Below, piece after piece: positions 7,275 to 62,664 of a stretch of DNA of 64,000 bases. The stretch comes from Gammaproteobacteria bacterium (lineage in GTDB: Bacteria; Pseudomonadota; Gammaproteobacteria; CAJXQU01): contig OZ245018.1 of NCBI GenBank assembly GCA_965223825.1, positions 1,939,792 to 2,003,791 of the forward strand, written 5' to 3'. A program made the translations under genes and the position numbers. The notes under the pieces are model-generated. The model saw nothing but the letters and a program-made list of their open reading frames with translations. It ran no database searches and had not been told where the DNA came from. The stretch's first letter is position 1. Each line of letters opens with the position of its first letter.

Positions 7275-7299
7275 TTTCTTAGTCAGCATGCACTAGATC

Positions 7300-13274: not shown

Positions 13275-13283
13275 ATCAATCAC

Positions 13284-13315
13284 CATATCCTGATCCGAAC
13301 GTGGATCAGGATATG
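13284..13315. promoter_or_regulatory. Perfect 13-bp-arm palindrome between cheW-CZB stop and trHb start (catatcctgatcc-gaacgt-ggatcaggatatg)
   Basis: Seen directly; no downstream T-run, so operator/attenuator/processing hairpin more likely than terminator. Confidence 0.4.
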
Positions 13316-13331
13316 CTAAAATGGCCGTCTT

Positions 13332-13730: not shown

Positions 13731-13842
13731 AAACCAAGTTTATTTTTTACCACGGTAAGACATCGGAAATTCGCCCCAAAAGCGGGTGGAAAATGCACCT
13801 AACTCTCTCGGTAAGCAACAACCTTTACTCAGACTAAACCGC

Positions 13843-14814
13843 TTAATGTCCTTTATGTGCACCCTCGTTTTTCAGCGCTTTCGCTTGTTCTACCCAATGC
13901 TCGCGTCTGATCGTGCCTTGACTGTTTAACTCAACATCAAACCGTTCGACATCTTTCTCATTCCACTTTGCGATATCACTAAAACGCGTCACACCGAGAC
14001 GACGTAGTACGCTCACATGCTCCTCAGCCAAGCCGCGAATTTTTTGTAAATCATCCTCTTTCTTACGCAAGAACTGATCGACAATAGACGGTTTCTTTTG
14101 ATTTTCTAACGAGGCCTTTAGCTGTGATATTTCGTTGTCTTTTTTCGCGATCTCATCGAATAATTCTTGCACACGATTTTGTAGACGGCCAATACGGCTA
14201 ATCGCTAACTCTGGATCCGTATTACCGCTCAATGCGGCTAATTGCAATGACTCGCCCGTTTGTGATTCAAGCTCTGCAATGCGCCGGTCGCGCTCAAGAA
14301 CACCCATGCGCGCTTGTTCAAACGCATTCTTTAAGACACGGCTTTGTTCTGTAATCTCATCTAGATCGCCTTCAAACCGACTTAGTTGAGATCGGATTTC
14401 GGTTAATTCTGTTTTCAATTTCGCGTTATCTTTCATTTGTGCATCGAGTGCATTGCGGGTCGTTTTCAGGGAATTATTAGCAATGTCACTTTCACGAGTC
14501 AGTGTTTGGATCTGCTGCTTACGCTCGTTGTAGCGCATATTCGCATTTTGTAATTCCTGTTGAATTCGTGACAAATCGGCCTCTTCCAAGTGGTTTTGAG
14601 CCTTTTCAGCCTCTAACTGTTCGCTTAACCGTATGCGTTGATCTCGCGTTGCATCCAACTCTTTTTGGATCGTATGCATGTGTCCCATTAGCGCTACTTC
14701 TGCATCTTCCAGTTTATGCTTCCAAGCTGATCGCGTGAATAACCATCCGCACAACCACGCTAATGCTGCAGTCGCCAACAGATAGAGTACGATTTCCCCT
14801 ATCAGATAATTCAT
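13843..14814 (-). CDS. N-terminally membrane-anchored long coiled-coil protein, hypothetical
   Basis: 323 aa; one N-terminal TM, ~230 aa of E/Q/R/L-rich coiled coil, conserved basic C-terminal tail; start abuts stop of upstream BON gene (14814/14816). Confidence 0.6.
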   Translation of the reverse strand: MNYLIGEIVLYLLATAALAWLCGWLFTRSAWKHKLEDAEVALMGHMHTIQKELDATRDQRIRLSEQLEAEKAQNHLEEADLSRIQQELQNANMRYNERKQQIQTLTRESDIANNSLKTTRNALDAQMKDNAKLKTELTEIRSQLSRFEGDLDEITEQSRVLKNAFEQARMGVLERDRRIAELESQTGESLQLAALSGNTDPELAISRIGRLQNRVQELFDEIAKKDNEISQLKASLENQKKPSIVDQFLRKKEDDLQKIRGLAEEHVSVLRRLGVTRFSDIAKWNEKDVERFDVELNSQGTIRREHWVEQAKALKNEGAHKGH

Positions 14815-14815
14815 T

Positions 14816-15556
14816 TCACTTTCTCCCCACCCTCAATTGCTTGTCCAACGTAAATTGCATTGGTAAGTTTGCAACGGCTTCATCAAAAGCCCGCTGAGCC
14901 TGCTCACCAGAGACAATACCTGACACACGAATCTGATTACCGATGTAAGCCAATTGCCCTTCTTCTACCCATTGTAGAAATGGGATCATCAAAGGCAAAT
15001 CCTGCAAGTACCATACCGGTTTTTCACTTAGTCTATCAACAGTTACGCTATATACATGATCTGTCGGTTCAAGCAACGAGGTAAACGTCTTCGCCAGATC
15101 ATTTTTAATTTTTCCCGTCGGCACAGTGCCATTAATTGCGACACCTAATCTATCCTTACTGACAAACAGATCAGATGAATACACTTCCGCTCGAGCACTA
15201 CTTTGAATGATTGTTTTTTCGGGTGAGGATGGGGATGGCGTATCAGCGATTACATTGCTTTCAACACTCAAGCGCTCTTGATGAAACGCGATCGTTCGTT
15301 GATAGATCACGCGCGCACCGTTGTTTTTTGCAATCAAGGCGGCTTCTTTGACGGAATCGGCAGGTCCCGTCAATAACATATCCAAGCCGCTCGTTTCGAC
15401 ACGAACAACGGATAGTTGTTCGTCAGCGAGTGCTCGAACAACCTTACCTTGAAGTCTGTCTTCCAGCTGTTGCGGCGCGTACTTGAGCGTTAGCCCCATC
15501 GCCAGCAACAGCAGAAGCAGACAAAACCACTTCACCAACTTACCTACCCCACCCAT
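14816..15556 (-). CDS. Membrane-anchored periplasmic protein with two BON-like domains, hypothetical
   Basis: 246 aa; N-terminal signal/anchor FCLLLLLLAMGL; BON-like segments (LSVVRVETSGLDMLLTGPADSVKEAALIAKNNGARVIYQ; IRVSGIVSGEQAQRAFDEAVANLP). Confidence 0.55.
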   Translation of the reverse strand: MGGVGKLVKWFCLLLLLLAMGLTLKYAPQQLEDRLQGKVVRALADEQLSVVRVETSGLDMLLTGPADSVKEAALIAKNNGARVIYQRTIAFHQERLSVESNVIADTPSPSSPEKTIIQSSARAEVYSSDLFVSKDRLGVAINGTVPTGKIKNDLAKTFTSLLEPTDHVYSVTVDRLSEKPVWYLQDLPLMIPFLQWVEEGQLAYIGNQIRVSGIVSGEQAQRAFDEAVANLPMQFTLDKQLRVGRK

Positions 15557-15668
15557 TTTAATCCTTCGACGCCAGAATTTTTACACAGCGACCATTATGA
15601 CGATAGTCAGGCAGAACCACGTAACAATTGTTCAAAGTTGCACGGGGCGTTCTCTGTGTTATTCATCC

Positions 15669-15878
15669 TTAAATACCCAAATACATGGTGATGACTTTTT
15701 TCAATGCGAAACCAAAAATACCGAGACCTAACCCGATAAAAAGCACCATTGTCCCAAATTTTCCTGCGCAAGATTCTTTCGCCAATCTGTAGATGATAAA
15801 CAGCATGAACAAACAAGTGGCGGTCAGACCCAAAGTCAGGGAAATCGATTCAAATTTTTCAATAAAAGCGGCGTCCAT
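15669..15878 (-). CDS. Possible small 2-TM membrane protein (69 aa)
   Basis: ORF with two clear hydrophobic helices, same strand and just upstream of BON gene; no homology I can name. Confidence 0.35.
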   Translation of the reverse strand: MDAAFIEKFESISLTLGLTATCLFMLFIIYRLAKESCAGKFGTMVLFIGLGLGIFGFALKKVITMYLGI

Positions 15879-15919
15879 TTGAGAACCTGATCACATTGAC
15901 AAGCCTATTAGACTACCAT

Positions 15920-16130
15920 AGAGTTGCGCCTGCTCGCGGTGCTTCGTTTAAAAATGAAGCGTTATGGGAAGTCGGTCTAAATCCGACGCTGCCCCCGCAA
16001 CGGTAGATGAGCATAGCCTGATTACAAAGCCACTGTGAAAACATGGGAAGGCGATCAGGCTGGAGAGTTCGCGATTTGTTAGCACACTCCACTCATAAGC
16101 CCGGAGACCGACCGAGAGCACAATAACCAG
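15920..16130 (+). promoter_or_regulatory. Cobalamin (B12) riboswitch in btuB leader
   Basis: Conserved elements readable: GGTGC..AA..GGGAAGTCGGTctAAATCCGACGCTGCCCCCGCAACGGTA ... B12 box AAGCCACTGTGAAAA..GGGAAGGCG; followed by expression platform and RBS GGGGAGA before TTG start of TonB receptor. Confidence 0.8.
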
Positions 16131-16270
16131 TCGCGGAGGGCGATGGATGGTCATGCTCAGAATCAACCGCCTGTCATGCCGCGATCACGTCTATCGTGTT
16201 CCACCATCAAACTCTCTGCTATCACCATTTCTTTGCTGTTCGGGTTGGAACGGTAACGGGGAGAATAAAA

Positions 16271-18217
16271 TTGAATAATATTACAGCAGGTTCATTTGCC
16301 CTGCTCACGACAGTTGGCCTGATCGCATCCGCGCAGGCAGAAAACATCCAGAACCTTGACGATGTATTAGTCACCGCATCTCGCGCACCGATTGCAAAAG
16401 ATCAAACCGGCTCATCGTATACCGTCATCACCGCAGAACAGATCGAGCAATCTCAACAAGTACAAGTGCATGAATTATTGCGAACTGTGCCCGGCATCGC
16501 AGTAAGTCGATCTGGTGGTATTGGATCGCAAACACAAATTCGTATGCGAGGCGCGGAGGCTGATCAGACATTAATTTTGATCGACGGCATCGAAGCAAAC
16601 GATCCTGGTCAAGGCTCTAGTTTTGATTTTGCGCATTTACTGACTGCCGATATTGAACGTATCGAAATCCTGCGTGGCCCACAAAGTGCGCTGTGGGGAA
16701 GTGATGCGATGGGTGGCGTGATCAATATCATTACTAAATCCGCGACCCGGAACCAGTTAAATGCCACGCTCGAAGCGGGAAGTTATTCTACAGTCCAGAA
16801 CACCATCAGTGGCAGTGTTGCTGGCGATCGCTACGGTATTGCCGTTAATGGTAATTTTCTACGCAGTGCTGGTATCAATGTCTCAGAGCAAGGCGATGAA
16901 GAGGATGGCTACCGGAATTCGACTTTGAATTTAAAAGCAAATTTCAACCCATTCGACAATCTTGATCTACTTTTTACCGCTCGCAAAAGCGCATCAGAAA
17001 AAGACTTCGATCCAACCTCGTTCATCACCTCCAAACCCGTGGATGGCGATCGCATCTCAGACGTTGATCAGTTTTATAGCCAATTTAATGCCGTATTGGA
17101 TACCTTAGATGGCCACTGGCAACACGTGTTCAACATCGCGTGGACCAAAACTGACAACGATAATTTTGCCGACGGTGTTGAAAACAGTTCAACCAATGGT
17201 GAAAAACGTAAAGTGAGTTATCAAAGCAATTTTTTCTTTGATACACCTTCATTTGCTGAGGCTGAACATACGTTAAGTCTCGCGCTGGAATACGAGCGTG
17301 AAGAATTTAAACAAACCGGCACCGCCAGCACATTCGGTAACCCAAACCAAGAACAGGATTTGAGTAACCGAGGCGTCATTGGTGAATACCGCATCAGCCT
17401 ACTCAAACAAATCCACGCATCTGCATCCATCAGACATGATAATAACGACGCATTTGATGATGCGACCACGTGGCGGACGAATATCGCGTGGGCAATTCCA
17501 AACACCGGTTCTACAGTACGTGCAGCTTATGGTACTGCTGTGAAAAATCCGTCATTCACGGAGCGGTTTGGTTTTACACCGGATACTTTCTTCGGTAACA
17601 CGAACCTCGAACCGGAAGAATCCAAAGGCTGGGAAATTGGTCTCGATCAATCTTTCTTGCAAGATCGCCTCACCGCCAGCGTGACATATTTTAAAGAGCG
17701 GTTAGAAAACGAAATTAACGGCTTCGTGTTTGATCCGACTCTCGGCACTTTTGGTGGTTTCACCGCACAAAACGTGCAAGGTGACAGCAAACGTCATGGT
17801 GTTGAACTGGCGCTAAACGCGATCATTTCTGACGCGCTCAGCATGAACGGCATGCTCACGTATGTTGACTCAACTCAGCCCGATGCTAATGGTGAGCAAA
17901 TCCGCGAGTTACGACGCCCTGAATACACTGCCGCGTTTGGGACGAATTATCGTTTTTTTCATAACAAAGCGAGCGTCAACCTCGATATCAGCTATACCGA
18001 CACGCAAAATGACAGTGACTTCAGCACATTTCCTGCAACACTCGTTACACTTGACGACTATGTGTTAGTGAATATTGCGACAGAATACGCGGTTCACCCT
18101 CGTGTGACCTTATTCGGCCGTATCGATAATCTCCTCGATGACGACTATCGCGATGTTTATGGTTACAACACAACGGGAATCGCCGGTTATGCGGGTTTTC
18201 GTGTTAGCTTGTATTAA
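16271..18217 (+). CDS. btuB: TonB-dependent outer-membrane receptor, cobalamin-type (BtuB-like)
   Basis: ORF 16196..18217; likely TTG start at 16271 after RBS GGGGAGA; signal peptide, TonB box region DVLVTASR, plug + 22-strand barrel, C-terminal aromatic YAGFRVSLY; riboswitch-controlled and followed by btuF/cobO. Confidence 0.85.
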   Translation: MNNITAGSFALLTTVGLIASAQAENIQNLDDVLVTASRAPIAKDQTGSSYTVITAEQIEQSQQVQVHELLRTVPGIAVSRSGGIGSQTQIRMRGAEADQTLILIDGIEANDPGQGSSFDFAHLLTADIERIEILRGPQSALWGSDAMGGVINIITKSATRNQLNATLEAGSYSTVQNTISGSVAGDRYGIAVNGNFLRSAGINVSEQGDEEDGYRNSTLNLKANFNPFDNLDLLFTARKSASEKDFDPTSFITSKPVDGDRISDVDQFYSQFNAVLDTLDGHWQHVFNIAWTKTDNDNFADGVENSSTNGEKRKVSYQSNFFFDTPSFAEAEHTLSLALEYEREEFKQTGTASTFGNPNQEQDLSNRGVIGEYRISLLKQIHASASIRHDNNDAFDDATTWRTNIAWAIPNTGSTVRAAYGTAVKNPSFTERFGFTPDTFFGNTNLEPEESKGWEIGLDQSFLQDRLTASVTYFKERLENEINGFVFDPTLGTFGGFTAQNVQGDSKRHGVELALNAIISDALSMNGMLTYVDSTQPDANGEQIRELRRPEYTAAFGTNYRFFHNKASVNLDISYTDTQNDSDFSTFPATLVTLDDYVLVNIATEYAVHPRVTLFGRIDNLLDDDYRDVYGYNTTGIAGYAGFRVSLY

Positions 18218-32115: not shown

Positions 32116-33792
32116 TTAATCCGTTTTACCTCTAATAAGAGAGTCTGGGTTGCGCTGTAAATAGTTCGCCAGCTCACGCATTGATCGCGCCGCGTCAGAG
32201 AGCTCGATCAGGGCTTTTTGTAATTCGTATTGAAGGGTGGAACCCGGCTCAAATGTGCTGAATGCATTACTCGCACTTTTCATCGTGCCATCAGCAGAGG
32301 TCATCGTGTCGTTAAACTGCGTAAAGGCTGAATCAACTGTAGACAACGCCTTGTTGGCCGATCGCAATGTTGTCGAGAGTCGCTGATCAACTGACGATAA
32401 GGTTTGCGATGCCGTATCCAACGTTGTCGTCGCCGCATCAGTCGCGTCCTTCACCCCTTTTAAGGCACTGACCAACTCACCAGAAATCTGATCAAGCGGC
32501 ATGTTTGAGAGTTTATCCATAAGTGCCTTGGCGGTATCAGCAAACTGATCCAGTGTTGGCGGAATGGTGGGTAATTCCATTTTACCTGCTGCATCTTCAC
32601 GCATCACAAGCGACTCAGTCGGATAAAAGTCTAGCGCCACGAAAAGTTGTCCTGTGATCAAACTGCCGGTTTGCAATTGTGCTCGCAAGCCGTCACGAAT
32701 GAGATGATCAATAAATTGTCGATCCGTCGCTTCGTCGCTTGTGCTCGACTGTCCGAGCCTTTCTGGTTCAAGTACAACACTCACAGGAATACGCACATCA
32801 TTCGTTTTTTCATCTATTTCCAGATCAATTCGCGCGACCTTCCCTACAGGGATCCCTCGCAGCTCAACTGGCGCCCCCACTTTTAAACCGCGAATCGAGC
32901 CTTCAAAATGTAAAGTGTAAGCCAGAGTACGGGTGTAACTCAGTTGCGTTGTATGCGTCAGTGAATCGTATAAACGAAATACTGATCCTGGCTGACTCAT
33001 TTCACTGCGTTCAAGATTATCTGGCACTTTGAAAGAAATGCCACCACTCAATAATGAAACAAACGGTCCTGTACGCAGATTAAAGCCTTGCGCACCGGCT
33101 TCCAGACTTATCCCGCTATCAATCCAAAACTGTGTACCATTTCGAACAAACTGATGATACGGCGCACGAATAAAGATCGGCAACGTCACATTTCGTCCGT
33201 CTTCCGATAATGATCGTTCCAACACTTTACCGACTTGTTCACCGTGAAAGTGAATCGGTGCGCCCGCACCGATATAACGCACATCGTCACTTTTCAACAC
33301 ATAACGACGGCCCTCCACCTCACTCGTTAAGGCAGGTGGTGTTTCCAAACCGACAAATTCATCGCGCTCCTCACCTTGCCCTGGCTCAACTTCGATATAC
33401 GGACCTGTCAGCAACGTTGATAAACCACTCACGCCGCCCAATCCCACTTGAGGACGCACAACCCAAAAACGCGTGCTTTCTTTAAAAAAATCCTCAGTGC
33501 CTTTGTTCATTTGCGCGACAATACGAATGGTTTTTAGATCGCTATTAATCACGATATTTTTCACACGGCCTATTTCAACATCACGAAATTTGAAGCGCGT
33601 TTTTTCAACATTCAAGCCTTCTGCAGTATTAAAATTTATCGTAATTTCAGGCCCTTTATCGATAATTGATTTGTAGATCATCCATGTGCTTACCACCAAT
33701 GCAATAATCGGCAATAACCAGACGATTGAAGGCCCTCGACGTTTTTTAATCGCCGCGTTTGCTGCAGGTTGAACGGGGTTATTTTCGGTCAC
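32116..33792 (-). CDS. pqiB: Intermembrane transport protein PqiB (multi-MCE domain)
   Basis: 558 aa; N-terminal TM, three MCE repeats, C-terminal helical region. Confidence 0.85.
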   Translation of the reverse strand: MTENNPVQPAANAAIKKRRGPSIVWLLPIIALVVSTWMIYKSIIDKGPEITINFNTAEGLNVEKTRFKFRDVEIGRVKNIVINSDLKTIRIVAQMNKGTEDFFKESTRFWVVRPQVGLGGVSGLSTLLTGPYIEVEPGQGEERDEFVGLETPPALTSEVEGRRYVLKSDDVRYIGAGAPIHFHGEQVGKVLERSLSEDGRNVTLPIFIRAPYHQFVRNGTQFWIDSGISLEAGAQGFNLRTGPFVSLLSGGISFKVPDNLERSEMSQPGSVFRLYDSLTHTTQLSYTRTLAYTLHFEGSIRGLKVGAPVELRGIPVGKVARIDLEIDEKTNDVRIPVSVVLEPERLGQSSTSDEATDRQFIDHLIRDGLRAQLQTGSLITGQLFVALDFYPTESLVMREDAAGKMELPTIPPTLDQFADTAKALMDKLSNMPLDQISGELVSALKGVKDATDAATTTLDTASQTLSSVDQRLSTTLRSANKALSTVDSAFTQFNDTMTSADGTMKSASNAFSTFEPGSTLQYELQKALIELSDAARSMRELANYLQRNPDSLIRGKTD

Positions 33793-34405
33793 TCAACTTC
33801 TCCTGTACATCCCAGATCCGACGTGGATCAAACGCATTTGCCGCTAACATGGTAAACACGACAACTAACGCAAATGATGTCGCCGCTGGCCCCGCGATCA
33901 CACGGGCAAGCTCGCCTAAATCCACTAGGGCGACAAGGATTGCGATCATAAAAATATCTAGCATTGACCAGCGACCAACAAAAGCAATCACACGATAAAC
34001 TTTCGTCCAATAACGCGCATCGGCGGGGAGCTGAAAATACACGATACTCATTAAGGCAATCAGCCCAACCAACTTCAATAATGGTACGAGTATACTCGCG
34101 ACCAAGACGAGTATTGCGATCGGGATCATCCCTTCGTGCATCAACGCAATGATGCCACCGGCGATCGTGTGCGTCTCTTCCTGTGCTAAGTTACTCACCG
34201 ACATGATTGGAAATAAATTTGCCGGAATATAAAAAATAATACTGGTTAATACCAACATCGCCGTCGTTCGCAAACCGCCGGATTTACGCTGGTGTAACTC
34301 ACTGTGACAACGTGGGCAACGTGAATCTTCCGTATTATGTGCAGACAACAAACCGCAATCATGGCAACGTAATAAATTCTGAGAATGCGCGGTTTCAAAC
34401 GTCAT
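33779..34405 (-). CDS. pqiA: PqiA-family integral membrane protein (second half as separate gene)
   Basis: ORF 33779..34444, start at MTFET (34405) giving ATGA overlap with upstream half; zinc ribbon CHDCG...CPRC followed by TM helices. Confidence 0.75.
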   Translation of the reverse strand: MTFETAHSQNLLRCHDCGLLSAHNTEDSRCPRCHSELHQRKSGGLRTTAMLVLTSIIFYIPANLFPIMSVSNLAQEETHTIAGGIIALMHEGMIPIAILVLVASILVPLLKLVGLIALMSIVYFQLPADARYWTKVYRVIAFVGRWSMLDIFMIAILVALVDLGELARVIAGPAATSFALVVVFTMLAANAFDPRRIWDVQEKLSDRK

Positions 34406-35025
34406 GCTGTTTGTCCTGATCGAATCATCCCAATCTGCTCCCAAAATGTTTCTTCATCCATCGTCGAACTCAACAAGGTCGTGATCAGCATTAGCACTGC
34501 AAACGAGTACAGTCCCCAGTCGAAAAAAACCTGTGCATCACCGGAGAGTTTTACAATCGCGACAATGATACCGAGCGTATAAACCTCGAGCATCGCCCAC
34601 TCATCCATGTGATGGATCCAACGCATCATATCCATCACATACGACGGTGCATTATTGAAATAAAGGTTCGCGCTCACCGCGAGCGTCATGAACAATTTCA
34701 AGAATGGAAAGATCACACTGGACAACAACACAAGAACCGCCACCAACCACAAACCACTATCAAACAACGCAGTGAAACTTCGCCACAACGGCACCTCGAC
34801 AAAATCACCTAAAAGCTGAATACCTAACATAGGTAAAAACATCGCAGGAAAGTAAAATAATAACCCGGCAATAGATAACGCAAAGGTACGTTCGACAGTG
34901 TGCTTTCGTGGCGAGTACAACACACAACCACAGCGAGGGCAGCACGCTTTTTCACCTAGCTGAGTTTGTGGATGTTGAATGAGGAGATCGCACTCACGAC
35001 ACGCGATCATCAGGTGATTAAGCAT
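34402..35025 (-). CDS. pqiA: PqiA-family integral membrane protein (first half as separate gene)
   Basis: 207 aa; CRECDL...CPRCG zinc ribbon + TM helices. Confidence 0.75.
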   Translation of the reverse strand: MLNHLMIACRECDLLIQHPQTQLGEKACCPRCGCVLYSPRKHTVERTFALSIAGLLFYFPAMFLPMLGIQLLGDFVEVPLWRSFTALFDSGLWLVAVLVLLSSVIFPFLKLFMTLAVSANLYFNNAPSYVMDMMRWIHHMDEWAMLEVYTLGIIVAIVKLSGDAQVFFDWGLYSFAVLMLITTLLSSTMDEETFWEQIGMIRSGQTA

Positions 35026-35136: not shown

Positions 35137-35631
35137 TTACGTCTTATCGCTTTGTGTAAACTCTCCGATCGCACGGTTCTTTTTGACATTTTCCCAGCTA
35201 AATAATTTCCCATTCATGGAAATATAAACACCGGAGGACAACGCTTGCGCTGCAGAGATCGCACAACCTAAGTTAAACAACGCATCCGATTGCTTAAATG
35301 CGTAAGGCACCATCGCACCGAGTAAAACAATCGTCTTCTCAGCCAGTTTAGAATCCCCACCGAGTACGCGCGCCGTGTCCGTCATCGTATCCGTCCCATG
35401 CGTGATCACGATTTGATCTGACGAACATGCAAGACAATGTTTTAGGATTAATGCCCGATCATCATCGTTCATTTCAAGACTATCTTTTAAGAGTAATGTT
35501 TCTACTGAAATCTCCACCTTACAACGGCCCTGCGTCAACATTTGTGGCACAGCCGTTTCATCGAAGATCAACTCTCCATTCAGCTCGTTATACTTCTTAT
35601 CAATCGTCCCACCAGTAACGAATAACTGCAT
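35137..35631 (-). CDS. Asparaginase N-terminal-domain-only protein
   Basis: 164 aa; TGGTIDK and ITHGTDTM motifs of L-asparaginase catalytic N-domain; no C-domain present. Confidence 0.6.
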   Translation of the reverse strand: MQLFVTGGTIDKKYNELNGELIFDETAVPQMLTQGRCKVEISVETLLLKDSLEMNDDDRALILKHCLACSSDQIVITHGTDTMTDTARVLGGDSKLAEKTIVLLGAMVPYAFKQSDALFNLGCAISAAQALSSGVYISMNGKLFSWENVKKNRAIGEFTQSDKT

Positions 35632-35905: not shown

Positions 35906-38725
35906 ATGTTCAGCTTCACAAAAAATAGCAAAACACTCACTCTTGCTCTCAGTATTTTTATAACTAGTACACTCAACTCTAATTCTCTTCTCGCTATCGA
36001 ACTGTCACTAGAAAACGTTGACGGTGATTTTGGTGTGGAGTTGCTTGGTTCCAATACAACGACCAATTTTGGTTTAGTCAGAGACTACCAAATCGCAACG
36101 ACTACGTACGGAGTTAATGACGTAGTCACTTTAAGAAGTTCAGGTTCCGGTAGCTACATCGATTTCTATTTTCCTTTTAGTAAAAAATTCGACAGCCCGA
36201 CAGCGTCACTATACGAATGGGGTATCTCAGGAAGGTATTACTACTCCCCCAATAGAACAATCGATTTGTTTTCCGTCGGAGATGTAAATAGTGATGGCAG
36301 AGATGACATGATTCTTCTTTACGACAATCAAAAAAAGTTATTTTATGGATCAACATTTCAAAATATGTCAACGAATCTTGCTAGTACCACCTCATGGGAA
36401 AATAGAGGCATAACTTTTTCCCAGCTCCTTTTTGAAAATATAAGAAATGCGATTCCTTTAGGAGATATCAATGGCGATGGTGATAAGGATTTCCTGATGG
36501 AGACTCGCACCAATGCGAATAATGATACAGGGACTATCACTGAGCATACGCTTCATGTTGTTTTTGGCGGTGAATACAAACCCGTTGATATTTCATCAGA
36601 TGAGCTAGATGGGTACAGTGGCTTCACCATTACCCTACCAGCAAACAATAAGGTGAAAACATATGCTGGAAATGGCGATATCAATGGAGATGGACTCGCT
36701 GATATAGTGATCAGTAGCACGTACCCTTCTCAAAACACCAGCTTGGGAATATATGTGATTTACGGTCGCCCCCAATTTCCACTAAATATCGATTTGGATA
36801 CATTCAGTCCCTCTGATGATGAAGGTTATATTTTAGACCTCGTAGGTACTGGATTTAGCACTCCGGGGGATTTGGCGCTTTTAGACTTTAATGGTGATGG
36901 TTACTCGGACATCGTTAGTAGGATGGGAATAATATATGGTTCAGCCGAACCATTCTCGACAGGCACCCGTTTTACAAGTCTCGAAACACCAGATGTTACT
37001 CAGTTTAATTTTAATCATGCCTATATGCGAAATGGCGGTGATTTTGATGGGGATGGTCGAGATGAAATTTTAGTTTCTCAAACTCGTTTAAAAGATCCTG
37101 TACCCAATTCTCTTTATACCCACGATCACTTAACCACTATCATCTTTGGACGCTCAGACTTTCCAAGTGAAATTGACCCCGACACACTCGGTTCAGCTGA
37201 AAAAATCACCATTGTCGGCAGTGGTAATTTTGATGCTGAAAATCCCAATTTTGCGCGTGCAGGCGACTTAAATGGAGATGGACTTGCTGATCTTAAGATC
37301 GGAAATAATAATGACAATGGAGGGAATGGTTCATTACATATCGTATTTGGTGACCCAAATCGATGGTCAGACTCTTACGTTGATACATTCAACAGTATCA
37401 CGACCTACCGCAGTGGTTTCCAAGGCTCCATTCAATCTGCCGGTTGGAATTATTACTGGAACCCCATAGCCGCAATCGGGGATTCTTCTCATTATCAACA
37501 ACTAAAATGGACTAGTTGGAATTACGATAACGATGGCATCAGTGGTCGTAGTGATGATCAACTTAATTACGGTAATTTAAATGAAAATGGTGGTCACCCA
37601 GGTAAAGGCGCCGAGCAAGGAGGCGTATCCTACGACCGATATGTAATCGCGGCATATCAAGCAAGCCAAGATGGTGTGTACGCCATTCAGGATAGCTTTA
37701 TCGATCACACGACTTCAAGCTGCGCGCAATGGAGTAATGGCGATGATATTCGAGTTTATGTTAACGACTCTCTCCAATTATCTGTTCCACTCCCCAAACA
37801 GGGCTCAGCCAGTTTTGATACTGCTTTAGGTTCACTGAACGCAGGAGATCAAATTTATGTTGCGATTGGACCAAACGGGCGTGATGGTTGTGATGGTTTC
37901 AGTATGGATTACGCTATCGCGATTGAGGGTACCCTATTGAATACTGCACCCGTCTTGAATCATATTGCTGATCAAGTCACTAATCAGGGTATCTCTGTAT
38001 CGATGTCAGTGAACGCATCAGATACTGACTCATTAACTTATTCAGCCATTGGTTTACCCACCGGCTTAAACCTCAGCTCAAGCGGTATTATCAACGGTAC
38101 ACCAAACACGGCAGGTAGTTACAGTGTCTTGGTGACAGCAACCGATCCAAGCGGTGCTTATGATCACCAATCTTTCAACTGGACGATTGGCAATACGAGC
38201 ACTGTGCTTGCTGGCTATCAAGCTGATTTTGCCAGCACGGCTAATTGGTCTTACCTGTGGAATGCCGATAGCAGCATTGGTAATGAAAGTGGTTATGTGG
38301 GGCTTGCTTGGAGTGGCTCAGATTTCCGCAGTGGTGAGTCAAGTTATCCCGCCTCCAGTGAATTACGTTACGGCTTCCTCGGACCACGCCGCAGTCATCC
38401 TGGTGCAGGGATAAATATTGCAACCGAAAACAGGTACGTGATCGCCGCATACACCTTCGATCAACCGGGTAGTTATCGATTAGAAAATGCCTATATCGAG
38501 CACCTTGTTTCAAGCTGCTCTGCATACAGTAATGGCGGTGAAGTTCATGTCTATATCAACGATAGCTTGGTTGATTCCTTCACATATGCACCTGAATCAT
38601 ACAATACGTTTAACATGCCGTTAGGTACTGCCAGTGTCGGCGATAAACTTTATGTTGCCGTCGGACCAAATGGCGCTGATGGCTGTGATTCTTTCGGCAT
38701 GGATTACTCCATCGTGCTGGAATAA
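35906..38725 (+). CDS. Large secreted FG-GAP/VCBS-repeat protein with Ig-like (dystroglycan-type) domain and two copies of an uncharacterised Cys-containing C-terminal domain
   Basis: 939 aa; signal peptide; repeated DxNGDGxxD(I/L/F) motifs (DINGDGDKDF, DINGDGLADIV, DFNGDGYSDIV, DFDGDGRDEIL, DLNGDGLADLKIG); putative Ig segment APVLNHIADQVTNQGISVS...; duplicated ~190-aa domain ending GPNG(R/A)DGCD(G/S)F(S/G)MDY. Confidence 0.85.
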   Translation: MFSFTKNSKTLTLALSIFITSTLNSNSLLAIELSLENVDGDFGVELLGSNTTTNFGLVRDYQIATTTYGVNDVVTLRSSGSGSYIDFYFPFSKKFDSPTASLYEWGISGRYYYSPNRTIDLFSVGDVNSDGRDDMILLYDNQKKLFYGSTFQNMSTNLASTTSWENRGITFSQLLFENIRNAIPLGDINGDGDKDFLMETRTNANNDTGTITEHTLHVVFGGEYKPVDISSDELDGYSGFTITLPANNKVKTYAGNGDINGDGLADIVISSTYPSQNTSLGIYVIYGRPQFPLNIDLDTFSPSDDEGYILDLVGTGFSTPGDLALLDFNGDGYSDIVSRMGIIYGSAEPFSTGTRFTSLETPDVTQFNFNHAYMRNGGDFDGDGRDEILVSQTRLKDPVPNSLYTHDHLTTIIFGRSDFPSEIDPDTLGSAEKITIVGSGNFDAENPNFARAGDLNGDGLADLKIGNNNDNGGNGSLHIVFGDPNRWSDSYVDTFNSITTYRSGFQGSIQSAGWNYYWNPIAAIGDSSHYQQLKWTSWNYDNDGISGRSDDQLNYGNLNENGGHPGKGAEQGGVSYDRYVIAAYQASQDGVYAIQDSFIDHTTSSCAQWSNGDDIRVYVNDSLQLSVPLPKQGSASFDTALGSLNAGDQIYVAIGPNGRDGCDGFSMDYAIAIEGTLLNTAPVLNHIADQVTNQGISVSMSVNASDTDSLTYSAIGLPTGLNLSSSGIINGTPNTAGSYSVLVTATDPSGAYDHQSFNWTIGNTSTVLAGYQADFASTANWSYLWNADSSIGNESGYVGLAWSGSDFRSGESSYPASSELRYGFLGPRRSHPGAGINIATENRYVIAAYTFDQPGSYRLENAYIEHLVSSCSAYSNGGEVHVYINDSLVDSFTYAPESYNTFNMPLGTASVGDKLYVAVGPNGADGCDSFGMDYSIVLE

Positions 38726-38757
38726 CCTAACCTGTAACGATATTTCCGAAAATATTA

Positions 38758-38795
38758 ATAGCTGATCAGATACCTCTGATCAGCTATTTTTTTAA
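38758..38795 (+). terminator. Rho-independent terminator after FG-GAP gene
   Basis: AGCTGATCAGatacctCTGATCAGCT + T7. Confidence 0.8.
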
Positions 38796-38852
38796 TATCT
38801 CGATCTCAAAACACCTCTATTTCACTTCAACGCGATGTAATAAAGACTTATG

Positions 38853-39078
38853 CAATGATGCGGTGCAGCATCGCACCAGCCATGTGCAATATTTCAGGTT
38901 AGGGTCTGATCTTAATACTATAACCCATTGTTTAAATTGAGAATTTAATGTTGGCATGGTATCTGCAAACTCTATTGTAATTGGTCTCCACCAACCGCTC
39001 CCGCAAAGGGACACCCTTGTGGGCTCAGAGAAAGAATTGCGAACCGTTCTGCGACTCTGAGCCCACTCTTTTATTTTC
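38853..39078 (+). repeat. Copy 1 of a ~230-bp non-coding element (candidate sRNA; internal hairpins and 3' terminator-like stem GGGCTCAGAG...CTCTGAGCCC + T-rich)
   Basis: ~97% identical to 39249..39485; preceded by terminator/AT-rich DNA; ends in strong stem-loop followed by actcttttattttc. Confidence 0.7.
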
Positions 39079-39248
39079 ATTCTTCCGGTTGAGTTCAAAC
39101 TTCATTCATTAAAAAACTTTGAATAATTCAATTTTTAATTAAAAACTTATTTTTTCTAATATATTTTTAAAACGTTTAAATAAAATTGAGTGATTTTTTA
39201 AATCATTTATTCTCAAACCCCATGTTCTCAAAGTGAAGCGTAAAATCT

Positions 39249-39485
39249 AACTCACATGTAATGATGCGGTGCAGCATCGCACCAGCCATGTGCAATATTT
39301 CAGGTTAGGGTCTGACCTTGAAACTATAACCCATTGTTTAAATTAAGAATTTAATGTTGGCATGGTATCTGCAATCTCTATTGTAATTGGTCTCCACCAA
39401 CCGCTCCCGCAAAGGGACACCCTTGTGGGCTCAGAGAAAGAATTGCGAACCGTTCTGCGACTCTGAGCCCACTCTTTTAATTTTC
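39249..39485 (+). repeat. Copy 2 of the ~230-bp non-coding element
   Basis: Direct repeat of 38853..39078 separated by ~170 bp of very AT-rich DNA (39080-39248); minus-strand ORF seen in copy 1 is not preserved here. Confidence 0.7.
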
Positions 39486-39588
39486 TCCCTTACTTTTTAT
39501 GAAAATAACTTTTCAATAAACGAAAAAAAACGTGTTAACCTCGTAGCAAGATTACACGTTTTTTAGTAAAAAAGTTGAATCGTTAAAA

Positions 39589-40506
39589 CTAATCAGGAAC
39601 TGTCATTTTACCTTCGCTAACTAACACAGCAGGGCCACCAACTCGCACAACTAACTTATCCGGTTTGTTATCCATTTCAATATTCAAAATACTATGTCGA
39701 GTATTTTCCATACCACGATCAATGGTGAACGTATGCGTGCCGTGTTTGATATGTTTGTGTTGACTTAAGTAAGCTGTAAATGCTGGCATGGCAGAACCGA
39801 TCGGTAAATCTTCTGAATGACTAATTTCAGGTCCGACCAAGCGGCCATGAAAATCCGGTGTTCCACCACCGCGCGTTGGGGTAACGAGAAGAATTTCACG
39901 TGCCAATGTGGCTGGCGCGCTGGATAAGCTCCACGCGATAAAATCAAATTTCGCTTTTCGCACTGCAGGATAGGTTTTGATCGGAACGATCAAATAGTTT
40001 TTCCCACAAGAAACTAACAACGGTTTTAATTTAGGTGAACCTAATTCTGATGCCGAAAGCTTCAAAATATCCGCCAGCTCTTCCTCGGGTGGTACAAAAT
40101 GATCAATTTCTGATTTCACCGGCATAGAAAACATCACCATGCTCGGTTTCTTATCTTCAGTAGAGGAAATAAACGTATCGACCACGCCAATATTTTGTTC
40201 AAACTTAACTGGTGTACCGTTTTCTGTAAGTTTTAAATCACCAATTGTGCTGAGTATCCACCCTGTTGCTATGATCGGATGTCCACCAAAATCCACTTCT
40301 CCCAATGGTGAGAAAATTCGCAACCGTCGATAGGCTTCTTCACGATTTTCACCGAAAACAAAAACAGTTTCCGATAAATTCATTTCCTTTGCGATCCGTT
40401 GCATCAAGTCTTTTGTCATGCCATCAGCATTTGGAAAAACTGCTATTTGCGCACCTTGAAAAATGCGTGTCGTAAAGACATCGGCAATATAGTAATCGTA
40501 CTGCAT
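39589..40506 (-). CDS. PhzF-family (phenazine-biosynthesis-like) isomerase
   Basis: 305 aa; N-terminal YIADVFT...GAQIAVF motif characteristic of PhzF/YddE. Confidence 0.85.
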   Translation of the reverse strand: MQYDYYIADVFTTRIFQGAQIAVFPNADGMTKDLMQRIAKEMNLSETVFVFGENREEAYRRLRIFSPLGEVDFGGHPIIATGWILSTIGDLKLTENGTPVKFEQNIGVVDTFISSTEDKKPSMVMFSMPVKSEIDHFVPPEEELADILKLSASELGSPKLKPLLVSCGKNYLIVPIKTYPAVRKAKFDFIAWSLSSAPATLAREILLVTPTRGGGTPDFHGRLVGPEISHSEDLPIGSAMPAFTAYLSQHKHIKHGTHTFTIDRGMENTRHSILNIEMDNKPDKLVVRVGGPAVLVSEGKMTVPD

Positions 40507-40519
40507 ACCCGCTCCCCTG

Positions 40520-47433: not shown

Positions 47434-47579
47434 TACATTACTAATTGCATGCTGTATGCCAATTACCTATCTTTCTGTTTTATATGAGGTTTTAACTGGT
47501 TAAAACCTAACGAGCAATACCCTTCGCCCAAACTAAGTGCGATTAACACTTTAATTGCACACATGCGGTGCGCAATACT

Positions 47580-56258: not shown

Positions 56259-57530
56259 TTAGAACTTCACCATGAAAAATGCCCAGAACTTAGTTAGGTC
56301 ATTACTTAAACCTGACGTGTTCATTACATTTTTATCGCCTTCGTAATCTGCGTATTTCAGGCCAACGGTGTAATGCTTGTTAAAGGTTTTCATCACTTCA
56401 AGATCAATCTCTTTACCGTAATCATAACCGTCTTTATCAGAACTAAGATCATGATAAGAAGCAACGAATTTTGCACCAAAAGCTTTTAAGACAGCAGTGA
56501 AATAAAGGTCTTCAACGCCATCGCCTGGAGTGACTAAGAACTTATCAGCCCAGCCTTGGAAGGCGTGATTAGTTCCCAAGATCGTCACGAATCGATCAGC
56601 ACCGCCATTACCTTCTTGAAGCTCATAACTGACCTTCATCATCAATGATTCAAACGGTCCAGACAGTTTGAATTTAGCGCCTATTTCCCCTAGGAAATAA
56701 TCTGCATCAATAGAATTTGGGTTATCACCTGCATCTGACTGAGTTGCAAACTCTGCTGTGTAGATACCTTTAATTTGCTCATTGACTGGAAATGCACCGT
56801 TCAAACGAATACCGTAGGTATCAGTTGAAAATGCAGCCGCGTTTTCGAAATCTAATAAATATGCATAGGCTTCAATATTTGCATATTTAAAACCAGTGTA
56901 TTTACCGTTGAAATAATGTGAATCACTCGTGAAATCATCTAATGGTGATGGTGCATCCTCACCAAAAATACGATTAATATTCCAAGCATAACCGTAGCTC
57001 AGTGTGGTATCTGGCAGTGACGTATTCACTACGGTGAATGCATCTTGTGTTTGCCAGTTTTGACGCCATAACACAGTACCCATATAACGATGGAATGGCG
57101 CATCTCGGTAAGTAATGATTTGACGACCAACTTTAAACATCGTGTCAGGTAGGCCGTTATAAAAAAGATAACTTTGATTTATTTCAGTTTGTTCCGGATC
57201 AACCACCGTCGCATATTGTGGTTTAGGATCTGCTGGTTGGTTATATTCTTGACCAAAAAGTGCTTGTACATGCTCAACTTGTCCGTATAAACCAAAACCA
57301 TGAAATGTTCCTGTTTTATACCCTAATGTAATACGTGCAGTGTATGCATTTGCATCTTCTTGCGCACCTTCATCATCAACATTTTCATAACGCAATCGCG
57401 CACTAAAATCTGTTTTCCCCGACGTTAAAGCGGTCCATAACGGATCATCCGCTTGCGCTGTATGACTCGTTGTTAACGCACTTGCCAATATTCCCCACAA
57501 TACTGGATTTGTCCCCAATTTCTTACTCAT
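56259..57530 (-). CDS. AlgE-like (alginate-export family) outer-membrane beta-barrel porin
   Basis: 423 aa; signal peptide ending AQA; alternating beta-strand pattern; C-terminal ...FFMVKF aromatic terminus. Confidence 0.7.
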   Translation of the reverse strand: MSKKLGTNPVLWGILASALTTSHTAQADDPLWTALTSGKTDFSARLRYENVDDEGAQEDANAYTARITLGYKTGTFHGFGLYGQVEHVQALFGQEYNQPADPKPQYATVVDPEQTEINQSYLFYNGLPDTMFKVGRQIITYRDAPFHRYMGTVLWRQNWQTQDAFTVVNTSLPDTTLSYGYAWNINRIFGEDAPSPLDDFTSDSHYFNGKYTGFKYANIEAYAYLLDFENAAAFSTDTYGIRLNGAFPVNEQIKGIYTAEFATQSDAGDNPNSIDADYFLGEIGAKFKLSGPFESLMMKVSYELQEGNGGADRFVTILGTNHAFQGWADKFLVTPGDGVEDLYFTAVLKAFGAKFVASYHDLSSDKDGYDYGKEIDLEVMKTFNKHYTVGLKYADYEGDKNVMNTSGLSNDLTKFWAFFMVKF

Positions 57531-57564: not shown

Positions 57565-57615
57565 ACAAAAGCCAAAAACAAAAAAAGGCCATGTCAGATC
57601 ACTCCGACACGGCCT
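57565..57615 (-). terminator. Rho-independent terminator downstream of ure operon/57865 gene (minus orientation)
   Basis: GGCCATGTC...GACACGGCC hairpin; minus-strand U-rich tail (plus aaaaacaaaaaaa). Confidence 0.6.
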
Positions 57616-57864
57616 CTTTGCTCGTTCTTAGTATTTAATATTTTTGTAAGACTGCGCCGTTGCAGTCGTTTCATGGATCTAGCATAGCAAAAGAGATGCC
57701 AAGAGTTTTTATTCTTTTATTTTCAATAACTTAGCATTTTCTCAATACTTTTTAAACAGAAGGTTTCGCACTAAGTTGATGCGGAAATTATCATGCTGCA
57801 ATAAAACGCGCACCAGATTGGGCAGAGAAAGCCAATGCTTCAACTCGAATTTAAGAAAACAAAA

Positions 57865-60655: not shown

Positions 60656-62359
60656 CTAAAATAAGAAGTAACGTTGCGCTAATGGTAATTCCGTTGCTGG
60701 TTCGCACATTAAGAGTTGGCCATCGGCATGGACTTGGTACGTTTCCGGATCAACCTCGATCGTCGGCTGATAATCGTTCAGATACATATCTTTTTTCTGA
60801 ACATTCCGACAGTTTTTCACTGCTGCCAGTCTTTTTTGTAAGCCAAGTTTTTGCGCAATGCCCTGACTGATCGCCACTTGCGAAACGAAGGTCAAACACG
60901 TTTCATGTCGTGCGCCACCAAAGGCACCAAACATCGGACGATAATGCACAGGCTGTGGGGTTGGAATAGACGCATTGGGATCACCCATCGCGGCGGCGGC
61001 GATCATGCCGCCTTTTACTATAATCGAGGGTTTTGCCCCAAACATAGCAGGATTCCAGATCACCAGATCAGCTAACTTACCCACTTCGACTGATCCGACT
61101 TCGTGACTGATACCATGCGTGATCGCAGGGTTAATTGTGTATTTTGCAATGTAACGTTTCGCGCGCAAGTTATCGTGTCGATCACTATCTTCTGGTAATG
61201 CACCACGTTGTACTTTCATCTTATGTGCGGTTTGCCAAGTTCGCGTGATCACCTCCCCTACTCGTCCCATGGCTTGCGAGTCTGACGAAATCATCGAGAA
61301 CGCGCCAAGATCATGCAGAATATCCTCCGCTGCGATCGTTTCGCGACGAATTCGCGATTCCGCAAATGCAACGTCTTCCGCAATCGACGGATCAAGATGG
61401 TGACAGACCATCAGCATATCCAAATGTTCGTCGACCGTATTGATCGTATAAGGCCGCGTAGGGTTGGTTGATGACGGTAACACATTCGCTTCACCGCAAG
61501 CTTTGATAATATCCGGTGCATGGCCACCGCCCGCACCTTCCGTGTGATACGTATGAATCGTCCGACCTTTAAAGGCTGCAAGCGTATCTTCTACAAAACC
61601 AGACTCGTTTAATGTGTCAGTATGAATCGCAACTTGAATATCGGTCTCTTCTGCAACACTCAAACACGTATCGATCGCGGCTGGCGTTGTCCCCCAATCT
61701 TCGTGGAGTTTTAAACCCATCGCACCCGCAGCAACTTGTTCCGTTAAGGCTTCTGGTAACGACGCATTACCTTTTCCCATAAAACCTAAATTCATCGGGA
61801 ACGCATCTGCCGACTGCAGCATTTTTCCAATATTCCAAGGGCCTGAAGTACAGGTTGTTGCATTCGTGCCCGTTGCGGGGCCAGTGCCACCACCAAGCAT
61901 AGTCGTGATACCAGACATGAGTGCTTCTTCAATTTGCTGCGGACAAATGTAATGAATATGCGCATCAATTCCACCGGCTGTAATGATTGACCCTTCACCG
62001 GCAATCACTTCCGTTCCTGGCCCAACAATAACATCAACATTTGCTTGCGTATCAGGGTTACCACCTTTTCCGATGCCACTAATGCGTCCGTCTTTAATAC
62101 CAATATCAGCTTTATAAATACCAGTATGATCAAGAATTAGCGCATTCGTGATAATCACGTCGACAACATGTTCTGCTGTCAGCTGAGATTGGCCCATGCC
62201 ATCGCGGATCACTTTGCCGCCACCGAATTTCACCTCATCACCATAAACGGTGAAATCCTTTTCAACTTCAATAATTATCTCGGTGTCACCTAAACGAACA
62301 CGATCGCCCACTGTCGGACCGAACATTTCTGCGTAGGCACGTTTATCCATCTGACTCAT
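60656..62359 (-). CDS. ureC: Urease alpha subunit UreC
   Basis: ~567 aa; [27 protein letters not shown]-terminus, MVCHHLD and other urease active-site motifs; TGATG 1-nt overlap with ureB. Confidence 0.95.
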
Positions 62360-62664
62360 CACAGATCCCCCATGATTTTTCCGTTAAACCCAAATACACG
62401 TCGGCTGCCCACATACGGAACTAAGCTAATCGTACGGGAATGACCGGGTTCAAAACGGACAGCCGTTCCAGATGGAATATCCAAACGCATTCCACGCGCT
62501 TGTTCTCGATCAAACGAAAGCGCTGCATTGGTTTCATAAAAATGGTAATGCGATCCTATTTGGATTGGCCTATCACCCGTATTCGTAATGCTAAGGGTCA
62601 CTTTTTGCAGGCCTTGATTTATTTCTATCGTGCCTTCATCGACGATCAGTTCACCTGGAATCAT
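62359..62664 (-). CDS. ureB: Urease beta subunit UreB
   Basis: 101 aa; [11 protein letters not shown]...[13 protein letters not shown]. Confidence 0.9.

Follow-up and report, generated by a model that had tools for sequence, protein, structure and literature searches.

What is the pair of nearly identical elements, each about 230 bp long, that stands in direct repeat between an FG-GAP gene and a phzF-like gene on contig OZ245018.1 of an uncultured gammaproteobacterium (assembly GCA_965223825.1)? A first-pass annotation of a 64,000-nucleotide (nt) stretch of this contig, here called the window, had proposed a duplicated small RNA (sRNA) gene pair on the + strand with intrinsic terminators, and had taken each whole unit for a single RNA of ~230 nt. 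The sRNA pair is supported by the present analysis; the length is not. Each repeat unit is most likely a complete, self-contained gene, in which about 128 nt of regulatory DNA precede a ~100-nt RNA with its own terminator. The two repeats are best read as tandem genes for trans-acting sRNAs of ~100 nt that would depend on NtrC and sigma-54 and would serve the response to nitrogen limitation. To this reading we assign a probability of roughly 0.68, confidence being fairly high for the gene model and lower for NtrC as its specific activator.

The repeat occupies 38850-39077 and 39256-39483, 228 nt each, with a start-to-start distance of 406 nt. The copies agree at 222 of 228 positions, which upholds the ~97% identity reported at first pass, with copy 2 starting at 39256 rather than at 39249. 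In the pairwise alignment the six differences are all substitutions, and all six fall upstream of the predicted RNA start. Both borders are sharp: the match begins at a distal activator site and stops at a terminator T-run, and beyond these points identity drops to 38-45%, the background level for AT-rich DNA. Because every difference between the copies lies upstream of the start while the remaining ~100 nt are identical, the repeat looked like a duplicated transcription unit and not like a 230-nt RNA. Covariance model R1, built from four sequences, locates two copies and no more in the window (130 bits for copy 1, 131 bits for copy 2), and one in each of the two related lineages considered below. 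The RNAs, their terminators and the borders between the genes are as follows.

38978-39077, + strand: predicted sRNA of copy 1, about 100 nt, 100% identical to that of copy 2
39019-39066, + strand: terminator hairpin of copy 1, a 12-bp stem (39019-39030 with 39055-39066), followed by a T-run at 39067-39077
39384-39483, + strand: predicted sRNA of copy 2, about 100 nt, with its stem at 39425-39436 and 39461-39472 and its T-run extending to 39483
39078-39255, no strand: AT-rich spacer between the copies, 177 nt and 77% AT, with no counterpart in single-copy relatives
38757-38788, + strand: intrinsic terminator of the upstream FG-GAP gene (35906-38725), a perfect 14-bp stem followed by a T-run

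The RNA start (+1, ±2 nt) is placed by counting 12 nt on from the C of the -12 GC in the promoter motif described below, and the end is placed within the T-run. Several features noted at first pass needed only adjustment. The terminal stem-loop with its T-rich tail is present, with a longer stem of 12 bp and with 24 instead of 26 nt between GGGCTCAGAG and CTCTGAGCCC; the spacer is indeed AT-rich, at 77% and not above 80%; and copy 1 does follow the FG-GAP terminator, which separates that gene from the sRNA.

Short-read data bear on the reality of the pair. In many independent sequencing runs, assembly of this species breaks off about 33 nt into the repeat, whichever side it is approached from: the Logan contigs L001-L010 and L035-L042 reach 158 nt beyond the FG-GAP gene or 139 nt beyond phzF. 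Such breaks are the expected behavior of k-mer assemblers at a true repeat, beyond chance or assembly noise, and this shows the tandem pair to be a stable feature of the species. As a practical corollary, the pair systematically interrupts short-read assemblies of this species.

The window was compared with two related lineages, L017 and L023, which were found through the neighboring phzF-like gene. In L017 PhzF is 89% identical and synteny is complete from the nitrate assimilation (nas) operon to pqiAB; in L023 PhzF is 80% identical. Each carries one copy of the element at the same place beside phzF, between the FG-GAP gene and phzF, directly after the FG-GAP terminator and about 110 nt before the phzF stop codon. 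This comparison points to an ancestral state of one gene between the FG-GAP gene and phzF and to a tandem duplication in the present species, where copy 1 retains the upstream context and copy 2 the downstream context with the AT-rich spacer in between. With no difference between the two RNAs, the duplication probably acts through dose. Gene content around the locus varies in other ways as well, as seen in L017, where positions 11332-17043 hold two tandem FG-GAP paralogues (923 and 948 amino acids, aa) against one (939 aa) in the window.

Conservation within the element is uneven. Between the window and L017, flanking coding DNA is 72-76% identical, whereas 38983-39022 (from GGTCTCC to CCTTGT) is identical at 40 of 40 positions and the terminator hairpin at 41 of 46. 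Upstream, the 16-nt sigma-54 motif, including its diverged N5, is kept at 11 positions and the proximal palindrome at 14 of 17, in contrast to 5 of the 15 nt that lead from the -12 element to the conserved body and 31 of the 61 nt of spacer upstream of the promoter. Islands excepted, the upstream half has diverged to the level of a random alignment. The conserved islands at fixed spacing behave as protein-binding DNA sites would, and not as RNA.

This pattern is hard to reconcile with the model offered at first pass, in which the whole ~230-nt unit is one structured RNA with a hairpin near its 5′ end, transcribed from a sigma-70 promoter with an upstream (UP) element in the AT-rich DNA. The full unit does fold with z = -3.2, and AT-rich DNA does precede copy 2. 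However, the spacer retains only 51% identity and the discriminator 33% between lineages, compared with 100% for the RNA body, and what is conserved upstream is confined to short islands held at fixed distances. The inverted repeat GGTGCagcatcGCACC that had been taken for the hairpin exists (38862-38877, and 406 nt further on in copy 2), but it consists of the right half of a distal and the left half of a proximal NtrC-type palindrome, and in L017 its counterpart (GGTTC...GCACC) no longer pairs. As for the promoter, copy 1 and the single copies of the relatives lie directly after a gene terminator with no AT-rich spacer before them, and a sigma-54 motif is found inside the repeat. A 230-nt RNA is therefore highly improbable, and the ~100-nt sRNA gene is retained.

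The predicted ~100-nt RNA folds well, with a minimum free energy of -36.1 kcal/mol for copy 1 (z = -4.6) and z-scores from -4.4 to -4.6 overall, and its two small hairpins have loops of 4 nt (CUCC) and 5 nt (GCAAA). A U-run follows the terminator stem on the + strand only. Structure prediction with covariation, which had been suggested at first pass, brought out two compensatory pair changes in the terminator stem: across the lineages its 12 pairs show these two, one change from G-C to G-U and no broken pair, and the stem pairs in 97% of cells, compared with 32-49% when the partners are slid. The compensatory swaps between the window and L017 (C-G to U-A and U-A to C-G) make up four of the five differences in the terminator, while L023 combines the change from G-C to G-U with a rewritten loop. 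Each unit has the makings of a stand-alone gene, with its own promoter motif and a Rho-independent terminator with a U-run, no + strand gene downstream and a convergent phzF. The 5′ portion, about 40 nt long, is C/U-rich and invariant and contains UCUCCACC, CCGCUCCC and ACCCUUGU.

Could this invariance reflect a protein instead? The first-pass annotation knew of one open reading frame (ORF), the 93-aa frame on the minus strand (38817-39098), which exists, and overlooked two on the plus strand, of 43 aa (38981-39112) and 59 aa (39387-39566). The plus-strand frame (TTG/ATG-VSTNRSRKGTPLW..., TTG/ATG-VSTNRSRKG...) is open in all three lineages, with TTG, ATG and TTG as starts, so that an intact frame is in fact kept in homologous copies; the coding interpretation is nevertheless rejected. 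No Shine-Dalgarno sequence precedes the frame, which would start some 5 nt into the predicted RNA, and it runs on past the terminator to two non-homologous ends (43 and 59 aa). Its substitutions between lineages are all non-synonymous, and a block of 40 nt is invariant with all third codon positions included, leaving the first 13 codons unchanged at every position while neighboring genes differ by ~25%. A small-protein gene or dual-function RNA in which this frame is translated is thus extremely improbable. The repeat unit carries no coding signal, which bears out the earlier argument for RNA rather than protein.

How widely is the sRNA gene distributed? In four more distant lineages with PhzF 64-67% identical (L018, L019-22, L043/44 and L045/46), model R1 gave no match above noise within 10 kb of phzF, and the gaps after phzF contain no sigma-54 or NtrC-type motif. 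A further lineage, L024, whose truncated PhzF is 83% identical, has no copy in its different, GC-rich context. A 20-mer scan of 185,579 species-representative genomes returned six matches, all due to chance, in unrelated genomes (46-71% GC) that share the 20-mer and nothing more of the element. The JGI metagenome collection held no match to an exact 22-mer, and nine to a gapped pattern, eight of which belong to an unrelated coding gene in bacteria of 62-68% GC, while the ninth arose by chance where a contig of 50% GC ends. The PLSDB plasmid collection gave no blastn match. The search of RNA families recommended at first pass, made with Rfam 15, likewise left both copies unmatched at gathering thresholds over the whole window, with only chance-level matches at E ≤10 over 38700-39650. 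The nearest named relatives of the source are metagenome-assembled genomes labelled Methylococcales or Gammaproteobacteria, and the RNA family appears to be narrow in distribution and restricted to a clade.

The same data speak to a decayed mobile or repeat element, such as a miniature inverted-repeat transposable element or a repetitive extragenic palindrome, or to a neutral recent tandem duplication of intergenic DNA. Such an origin would account for two near-identical tandem copies at which assemblies break. It is barely credible here, given that the units have no terminal inverted repeats (8-9 of 30) and no target-site duplications, that no transposase lies nearby and only two copies occur in the window, that two diverged lineages have one orthologous copy each in this position, its RNA body far more conserved than coding DNA, and that the genome-representative, metagenome and plasmid collections hold no true match. 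The first-pass annotation had also judged the element not to be mobile, and in this it was right; its alternative of a genome-specific dispersed repeat fails on the two copies in 64 kb and the one at the orthologous locus in each of two relatives.

With the RNA confined to the 3′ part, the ~128 nt upstream in each unit are most likely promoter and enhancer DNA. The candidate sites are the following, with NtrC-type sites scored against GCACCA-N3-TGGTGC.

38851-38867, no strand: distal NtrC-type site of copy 1, TGCAATGATGCGGTGCA, centered at about -119, 8/12, 21 bp upstream of the proximal site
38872-38888, no strand: proximal NtrC-type palindrome of copy 1, CGCACCAGCCATGTGCA, centered at -98, a 10/12 match
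38921-38933, - strand: IHF-like site of copy 1, AAACAATGGGTTA, with one mismatch to WATCAANNNNTTR, between the enhancer sites and the promoter
38952-38967, + strand: sigma-54 -24/-12 motif of copy 1, TGGCATGGTATCTGCA, an exact TGGCAY-N5-YTGCW
39257-39273, no strand: distal site of copy 2, TGTAATGATGCGGTGCA, weakened by a C-to-T substitution to below the 8/12 reporting cut-off
39278-39294, no strand: proximal NtrC-type palindrome of copy 2, CGCACCAGCCATGTGCA, centered at -98
39327-39339, - strand: IHF-like site of copy 2, AAACAATGGGTTA
39358-39373, + strand: sigma-54 -24/-12 motif of copy 2, TGGCATGGTATCTGCA

Exact matches to the sigma-54 form TGGCAY-N5-YTGCW number three in the window against 0.34 expected by chance, and in both copies the -24 GG and -12 GC stand exactly 10 nt apart, as in the sigma-54 consensus TGGCAC-N5-TTGCW. 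Across the three lineages the motif reads TGGCATGGTATCTGCA, TGGCACGTATGCTGCA and TGGCACAGATCATGCA, with GG and GC kept and N5 diverged, and the common form at the sRNA promoters is TGGCAY-N5-MTGCA; the gap from the motif to the conserved RNA body is 15, 15 and 16 nt.

One complication is a weak sigma-70-like pair, TTGGCA-16-TATTGT, which matches its consensus at 9/12 and overlaps the sigma-54 motif in this genome (38951-38978 and 39357-39384). Conceivably, the ~100-nt sRNA could be made from this promoter, with the palindromes binding a classical repressor or activator. This is very unlikely: matches of this quality occur in the region at the chance rate (3 against 3.2 expected), and the -10 hexamer is not conserved, retaining 1-3 of 6 positions in L017 and L023 at spacers of 16-18, in contrast to the invariant GG and GC. 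Moreover, an enhancer ~100 bp upstream with an IHF-like site in between is typical of sigma-54 and not of sigma-70 promoters.

Sigma-54 promoters need RpoN and an ATP-hydrolysing bacterial enhancer-binding protein, whose sites typically lie ~80-150 bp from the start, often with a site for integration host factor (IHF) in between, and the palindromes and the IHF-like site of each unit occupy these positions. Within the window the exact string GCACCA-N5-GTGC occurs only in the two repeat units. The proximal site is centered at -98 in both copies, at -96 in L017 and at -97 in L023, with scores of 10-11/12, and wherever the sequence exists a second site of 8-9/12 lies 21 bp, or two helical turns, further upstream; that of L017 scores 9/12 and is centered at -117, and that of copy 2 is weakened by the change from TGCAAT to TGTAAT. 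Two or more sites resembling TGCACC-N5-GGTGCA upstream of a sigma-54 promoter are the mark of the NtrC regulon. Matches of at least 10/12 to the NtrC consensus number 10 over both strands, compared with ~3 in shuffled sequence. Counting each palindrome once leaves only five sites in 64 kb. Three are coupled to the three exact sigma-54 motifs of the window, at 98-100 bp upstream, and two fall within coding sequence, such that intergenic sites of this quality are found only at sigma-54 promoters. The IHF-like site, on the same (opposite) strand and 30-31 nt before TGGCA in the window, L017 and L023 alike, has at most one mismatch to WATCAANNNNTTR. Its three versions, AAACAAtgggTTA, AAACAAgcacTTA and TATCAAatagATA, keep the consensus positions and change the N4; the base rate of the pattern is 8e-4 per position.

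Where does the third exact sigma-54 motif lie? It stands at the head of the operon that converges on copy 2. The surroundings had been described at first pass as an accessory region; they are instead a nitrate/nitrite assimilation cluster, which ends at phzF next to copy 2. From that side its order is phzF-like gene, assimilatory nitrate reductase, nirD, nirB, a NirB-like reductase, a PP2C-kinase gene, a NarK-type transporter, an NrtABC-type transporter, an ANTAR (NasT-type) regulator and, heading the cluster, a 423-aa ORF, with urease genes beyond. The promoter at its head has the same three parts as the sRNA promoters.

57686-57701, - strand: third exact sigma-54 motif, at the head of the nitrate-assimilation operon
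57768-57782, no strand: NtrC-type site of the nas operon, its best site, centered at -100
57721-57733, opposite strand: IHF-like site of the nas operon, at the same offset as at the sRNA promoters

The adjoining operon thus explains the proposed regulation of the sRNA. Three further features of the cluster may be recorded. The heading ORF (56259-57530) matched no Pfam or NCBIfam family. The nas leader (57585-57676, - strand) contains a 6-bp hairpin with the hexaloop AACGGC, then a 14-bp terminator with a U-run (z = -6.6), and looks like a NasT/ANTAR antitermination leader downstream of the putative NtrC-IHF-sigma-54 promoter. Lastly, the intergenic region before the reductase-nirBD-nasA-phzF genes (47434-47579, - strand) holds an NtrC-like element, CGCACCGCATGTGTGCAAT, centered at about -129, and a GG-N10-GC motif, TGGCATACAGCATGCA, at 47446-47461 (- strand), whose predicted start at ~47435 nearly coincides with an ATG at 47433/47427; the motif is a chance match or else an internal promoter from which a leaderless mRNA would be made.

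A role for the sRNA itself as a decoy for ANTAR proteins, of the EutX/Rli55 kind, was considered. The motif for such decoys, which we take to be two adjacent hexaloop hairpins with A at position 1 and G at position 4, is not found in the sRNA, whose loops have 4 and 5 nt, and this role was rejected; a hexaloop hairpin of the expected kind is seen in the nas leader instead. A second sRNA locus was considered at a strong NtrC-like site at 7206 and was likewise rejected, as the site (7206-7220, a chance 10/12 match) lies inside an Lpp-like lipoprotein gene (6991-7275, + strand; MIKATRISALILAAGLTAGCSS..., alanine-rich) between two convergent genes.

Together, these elements suggest how the genes might operate. 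On nitrogen limitation, phosphorylated NtrC would bind the sites at -119 and -98 and touch sigma-54 RNA polymerase through a DNA loop assisted by IHF. Transcription would start about 5 nt before GGUCUCC and stop at the 12-bp intrinsic terminator with its U-run, so that the sRNA would be induced together with the adjacent nitrate/nitrite assimilation operon, at a dose that the tandem duplication would double. As the C/U-rich 5′ portion resembles an anti-Shine-Dalgarno sequence, the RNA most likely pairs with the ribosome-binding regions of target mRNAs; such pairing would probably be assisted by Hfq and would repress translation. On a broader interpretation, about which we are evenly divided, the locus represents an sRNA family not described before and confined to its clade, which supplies the NtrC response with its post-transcriptional arm, is built on a nas-like promoter design and was recently doubled by tandem duplication.

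Which messages might be bound? A search with RNAduplex over the 58 translation-initiation regions in 64 kb gave a single lead, the ribosome-binding site (RBS) of the phzF-like gene. This site, ACAGGGGAGCGGGUAUG (40509-40516, - strand), contains GGGAGCGG, an 8-mer that complements the invariant CCGCUCCC perfectly and that the window holds nowhere else except on the antisense strand of the sRNA genes. In its boldest version, the proposal would have the sRNA feed back on the nas operon by pairing of CCGCUCCC to the RBS of its last gene, phzF. The match, perfect in the window, is reduced to 7 bp with one G-U in L017 (GGGGAGUG) and is absent from L023. With this loss, and with about one such 8-mer match expected by chance, the phzF RBS was rejected as a conserved target.

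Several observations weigh against the proposed sRNA genes or their proposed control. The transcript, its ends and its nitrogen dependence are predictions. The covariation amounts to two pairs in one lineage and is statistically weak: with three lineages it is equalled in 42 of 500 column shuffles. Neither of the small 5′ hairpins varies, and the 5′ part in isolation is not significantly structured (z = -1.6), a value that would also suit a seed region open to pairing. Among the translation-initiation regions of the window no conserved target came to light. The sigma-70-like pair shares its place with the sigma-54 motif. The genes ntrC, rpoN, ihf and hfq lie outside the 64 kb, and their presence in the organism is assumed. 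Finally, NtrC is named as activator purely from motif resemblance, and while the proximal sites score 10-11/12, the distal ones reach just 8-9/12, that of copy 2 being weaker still.

The last of these points leave room for a sigma-54-dependent sRNA gene under a different enhancer-binding protein, with a nitrate-specific signal or an unrelated two-component input. Members of the NtrC family can share similar palindromes, no ntrC gene is seen in the window, and the assignment comes from the motif, which the distal sites match at just 8-9/12. Yet the proximal sites are close to the NtrC consensus in every lineage, and sites recur at the same distance upstream of a nitrate-assimilation promoter. 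In a related order, such an operon is under NtrC control through a motif like that of E. coli: chromatin immunoprecipitation with exonuclease digestion (ChIP-exo) in Methylomonas sp. DH-1 yielded an NtrC motif highly similar to the E. coli one, with NtrC controlling nirBD, a nitrate transporter and glnA and binding near nasT and narK (PMC12799797). A different activator is for these reasons unlikely, and NtrC remains the preferred candidate.

The window contains other elements of note outside the sRNA locus. A cobalamin riboswitch (RF00174, 93 bits) at 15920-16130 (+ strand) precedes a gene for a TonB-dependent receptor (16196-18217) and others related to B12. An Rfam match to 5_ureB_sRNA (61924-62209, + strand, 98 bits) overlaps the gene for the urease alpha subunit (60656-62362, - strand) in antisense orientation. 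Its most likely source is conservation of the urease coding sequence, and it gives no evidence for an antisense RNA here. A 164-aa ORF at 35137-35631 (- strand) matches only the N-terminal domain of asparaginase, and pqiA (33779-35025, - strand) is divided between two ORFs (221 and 207 aa) that overlap. As both arrangements recur in L017, they are conserved features and not sequencing errors.

What does the locus add? Few sigma-54/NtrC-dependent sRNAs have been described, mostly from model organisms and chiefly NrsZ and NfiS of Pseudomonas, and the present pair would be a new, cleanly delimited example from an uncultured relative of the Methylococcales, the gammaproteobacterial methanotrophs. 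Its whole putative regulatory architecture (two activator sites, an IHF site, a -24/-12 promoter, the RNA and its terminator) was resolved by sequence comparison alone. With it, a link between nitrate assimilation and riboregulation becomes open to direct test, and the lineages with one and two copies constitute a natural experiment on sRNA gene dosage. Covariance model R1 and the composite promoter signature, GCACCA-N3-TGGTGC followed after about 66-70 nt by TGGCAY-N5-NTGCA, can be used to find more such genes. There is also a general lesson, in that a “structured repeat” can be half promoter.

Among known systems, the closest in mechanism is NrsZ of Pseudomonas, an NtrC/RpoN-dependent sRNA with the promoter TGGCACAGCCCCTGCA and a CTGCA -12 element (PMC4253122). 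Like the genes described here, NrsZ has a gene to itself and a sigma-54 promoter of matching form (TGGCAC-N5-CTGCA in nrsZ, TGGCAY-N5-MTGCA here), depends on NtrB/C, is induced on nitrate or nitrogen limitation, adjoins genes of nitrogen regulation and contains a repeated functional module; on the side of the present genes, the corresponding dependence and induction are predicted. The differences are considerable. NrsZ is made as one transcript of ~226 nt and processed into three similar modules, whereas the present locus has two distinct genes with an enhancer, a promoter and a terminator apiece. A loop of NrsZ presents ACAGGCAG, and the RNA activates rhlA, while the tracts conserved here are C/U-rich. 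Its genomic neighbor is ntrC, in place of the nas operon, and the two RNAs share no similarity of sequence or structure. Tested for membership in the NrsZ family, the ~100-nt RNA beside the phzF/nas genes contained neither the ACAGGCAG motif nor the modular structure.

Other RNAs also add post-transcriptional control to the nitrogen regulon. NfiS and NfiR of Pseudomonas stutzeri (PMC6606865) and the enterobacterial GlnZ, derived from the glnA 3′ untranslated region (UTR) (PMC9731577), are described as dependent on NtrC/RpoN and nitrogen limitation. GlnZ is processed from the 3′ UTR of glnA mRNA and has no separate gene, and NfiS and NfiR are single-copy and specific to Pseudomonas, which sets them apart from the tandem genes.

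In the logic of the family, the nearest parallel is provided by Qrr1-5 of Vibrio (RF00378). These are multi-copy, near-identical sRNAs of ~100 nt with their own sigma-54 promoters and sites for an activator of the NtrC family (LuxO), an invariant single-stranded seed, an intrinsic terminator and a copy number that varies between species and points to dosage effects. The qrr genes are dispersed, in contrast to the tandem arrangement here, and the LuxO site, which we take to be TTGCA-N3-TGCAA, differs from the NtrC-type GCACCA-N3-TGGTGC palindromes. Membership in the Qrr family was rejected: the sole match in the region reaches 28.4 bits, short of the gathering score of 50, and falls on the terminator of the neighboring FG-GAP gene (38704-38793), not on the sRNA.

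The layout, finally, is most closely matched by PrrF1 and PrrF2 of Pseudomonas aeruginosa, two sRNA genes more than 95% identical that lie in direct tandem across a short spacer, each with its own terminator and its own promoter bearing regulator sites. Related species carry other arrangements. The PrrF genes are repressed by Fur, are transcribed from sigma-70 promoters and serve the response to iron, all of which differs from the control proposed here, and they show no sequence similarity to the present pair. By analogy, then, the tandem genes resemble NrsZ in mechanism, Qrr in family logic and PrrF1/PrrF2 in layout while belonging, as judged by sequence and structure, to none of these families; this is not a new type of element but a new RNA family of a familiar kind.

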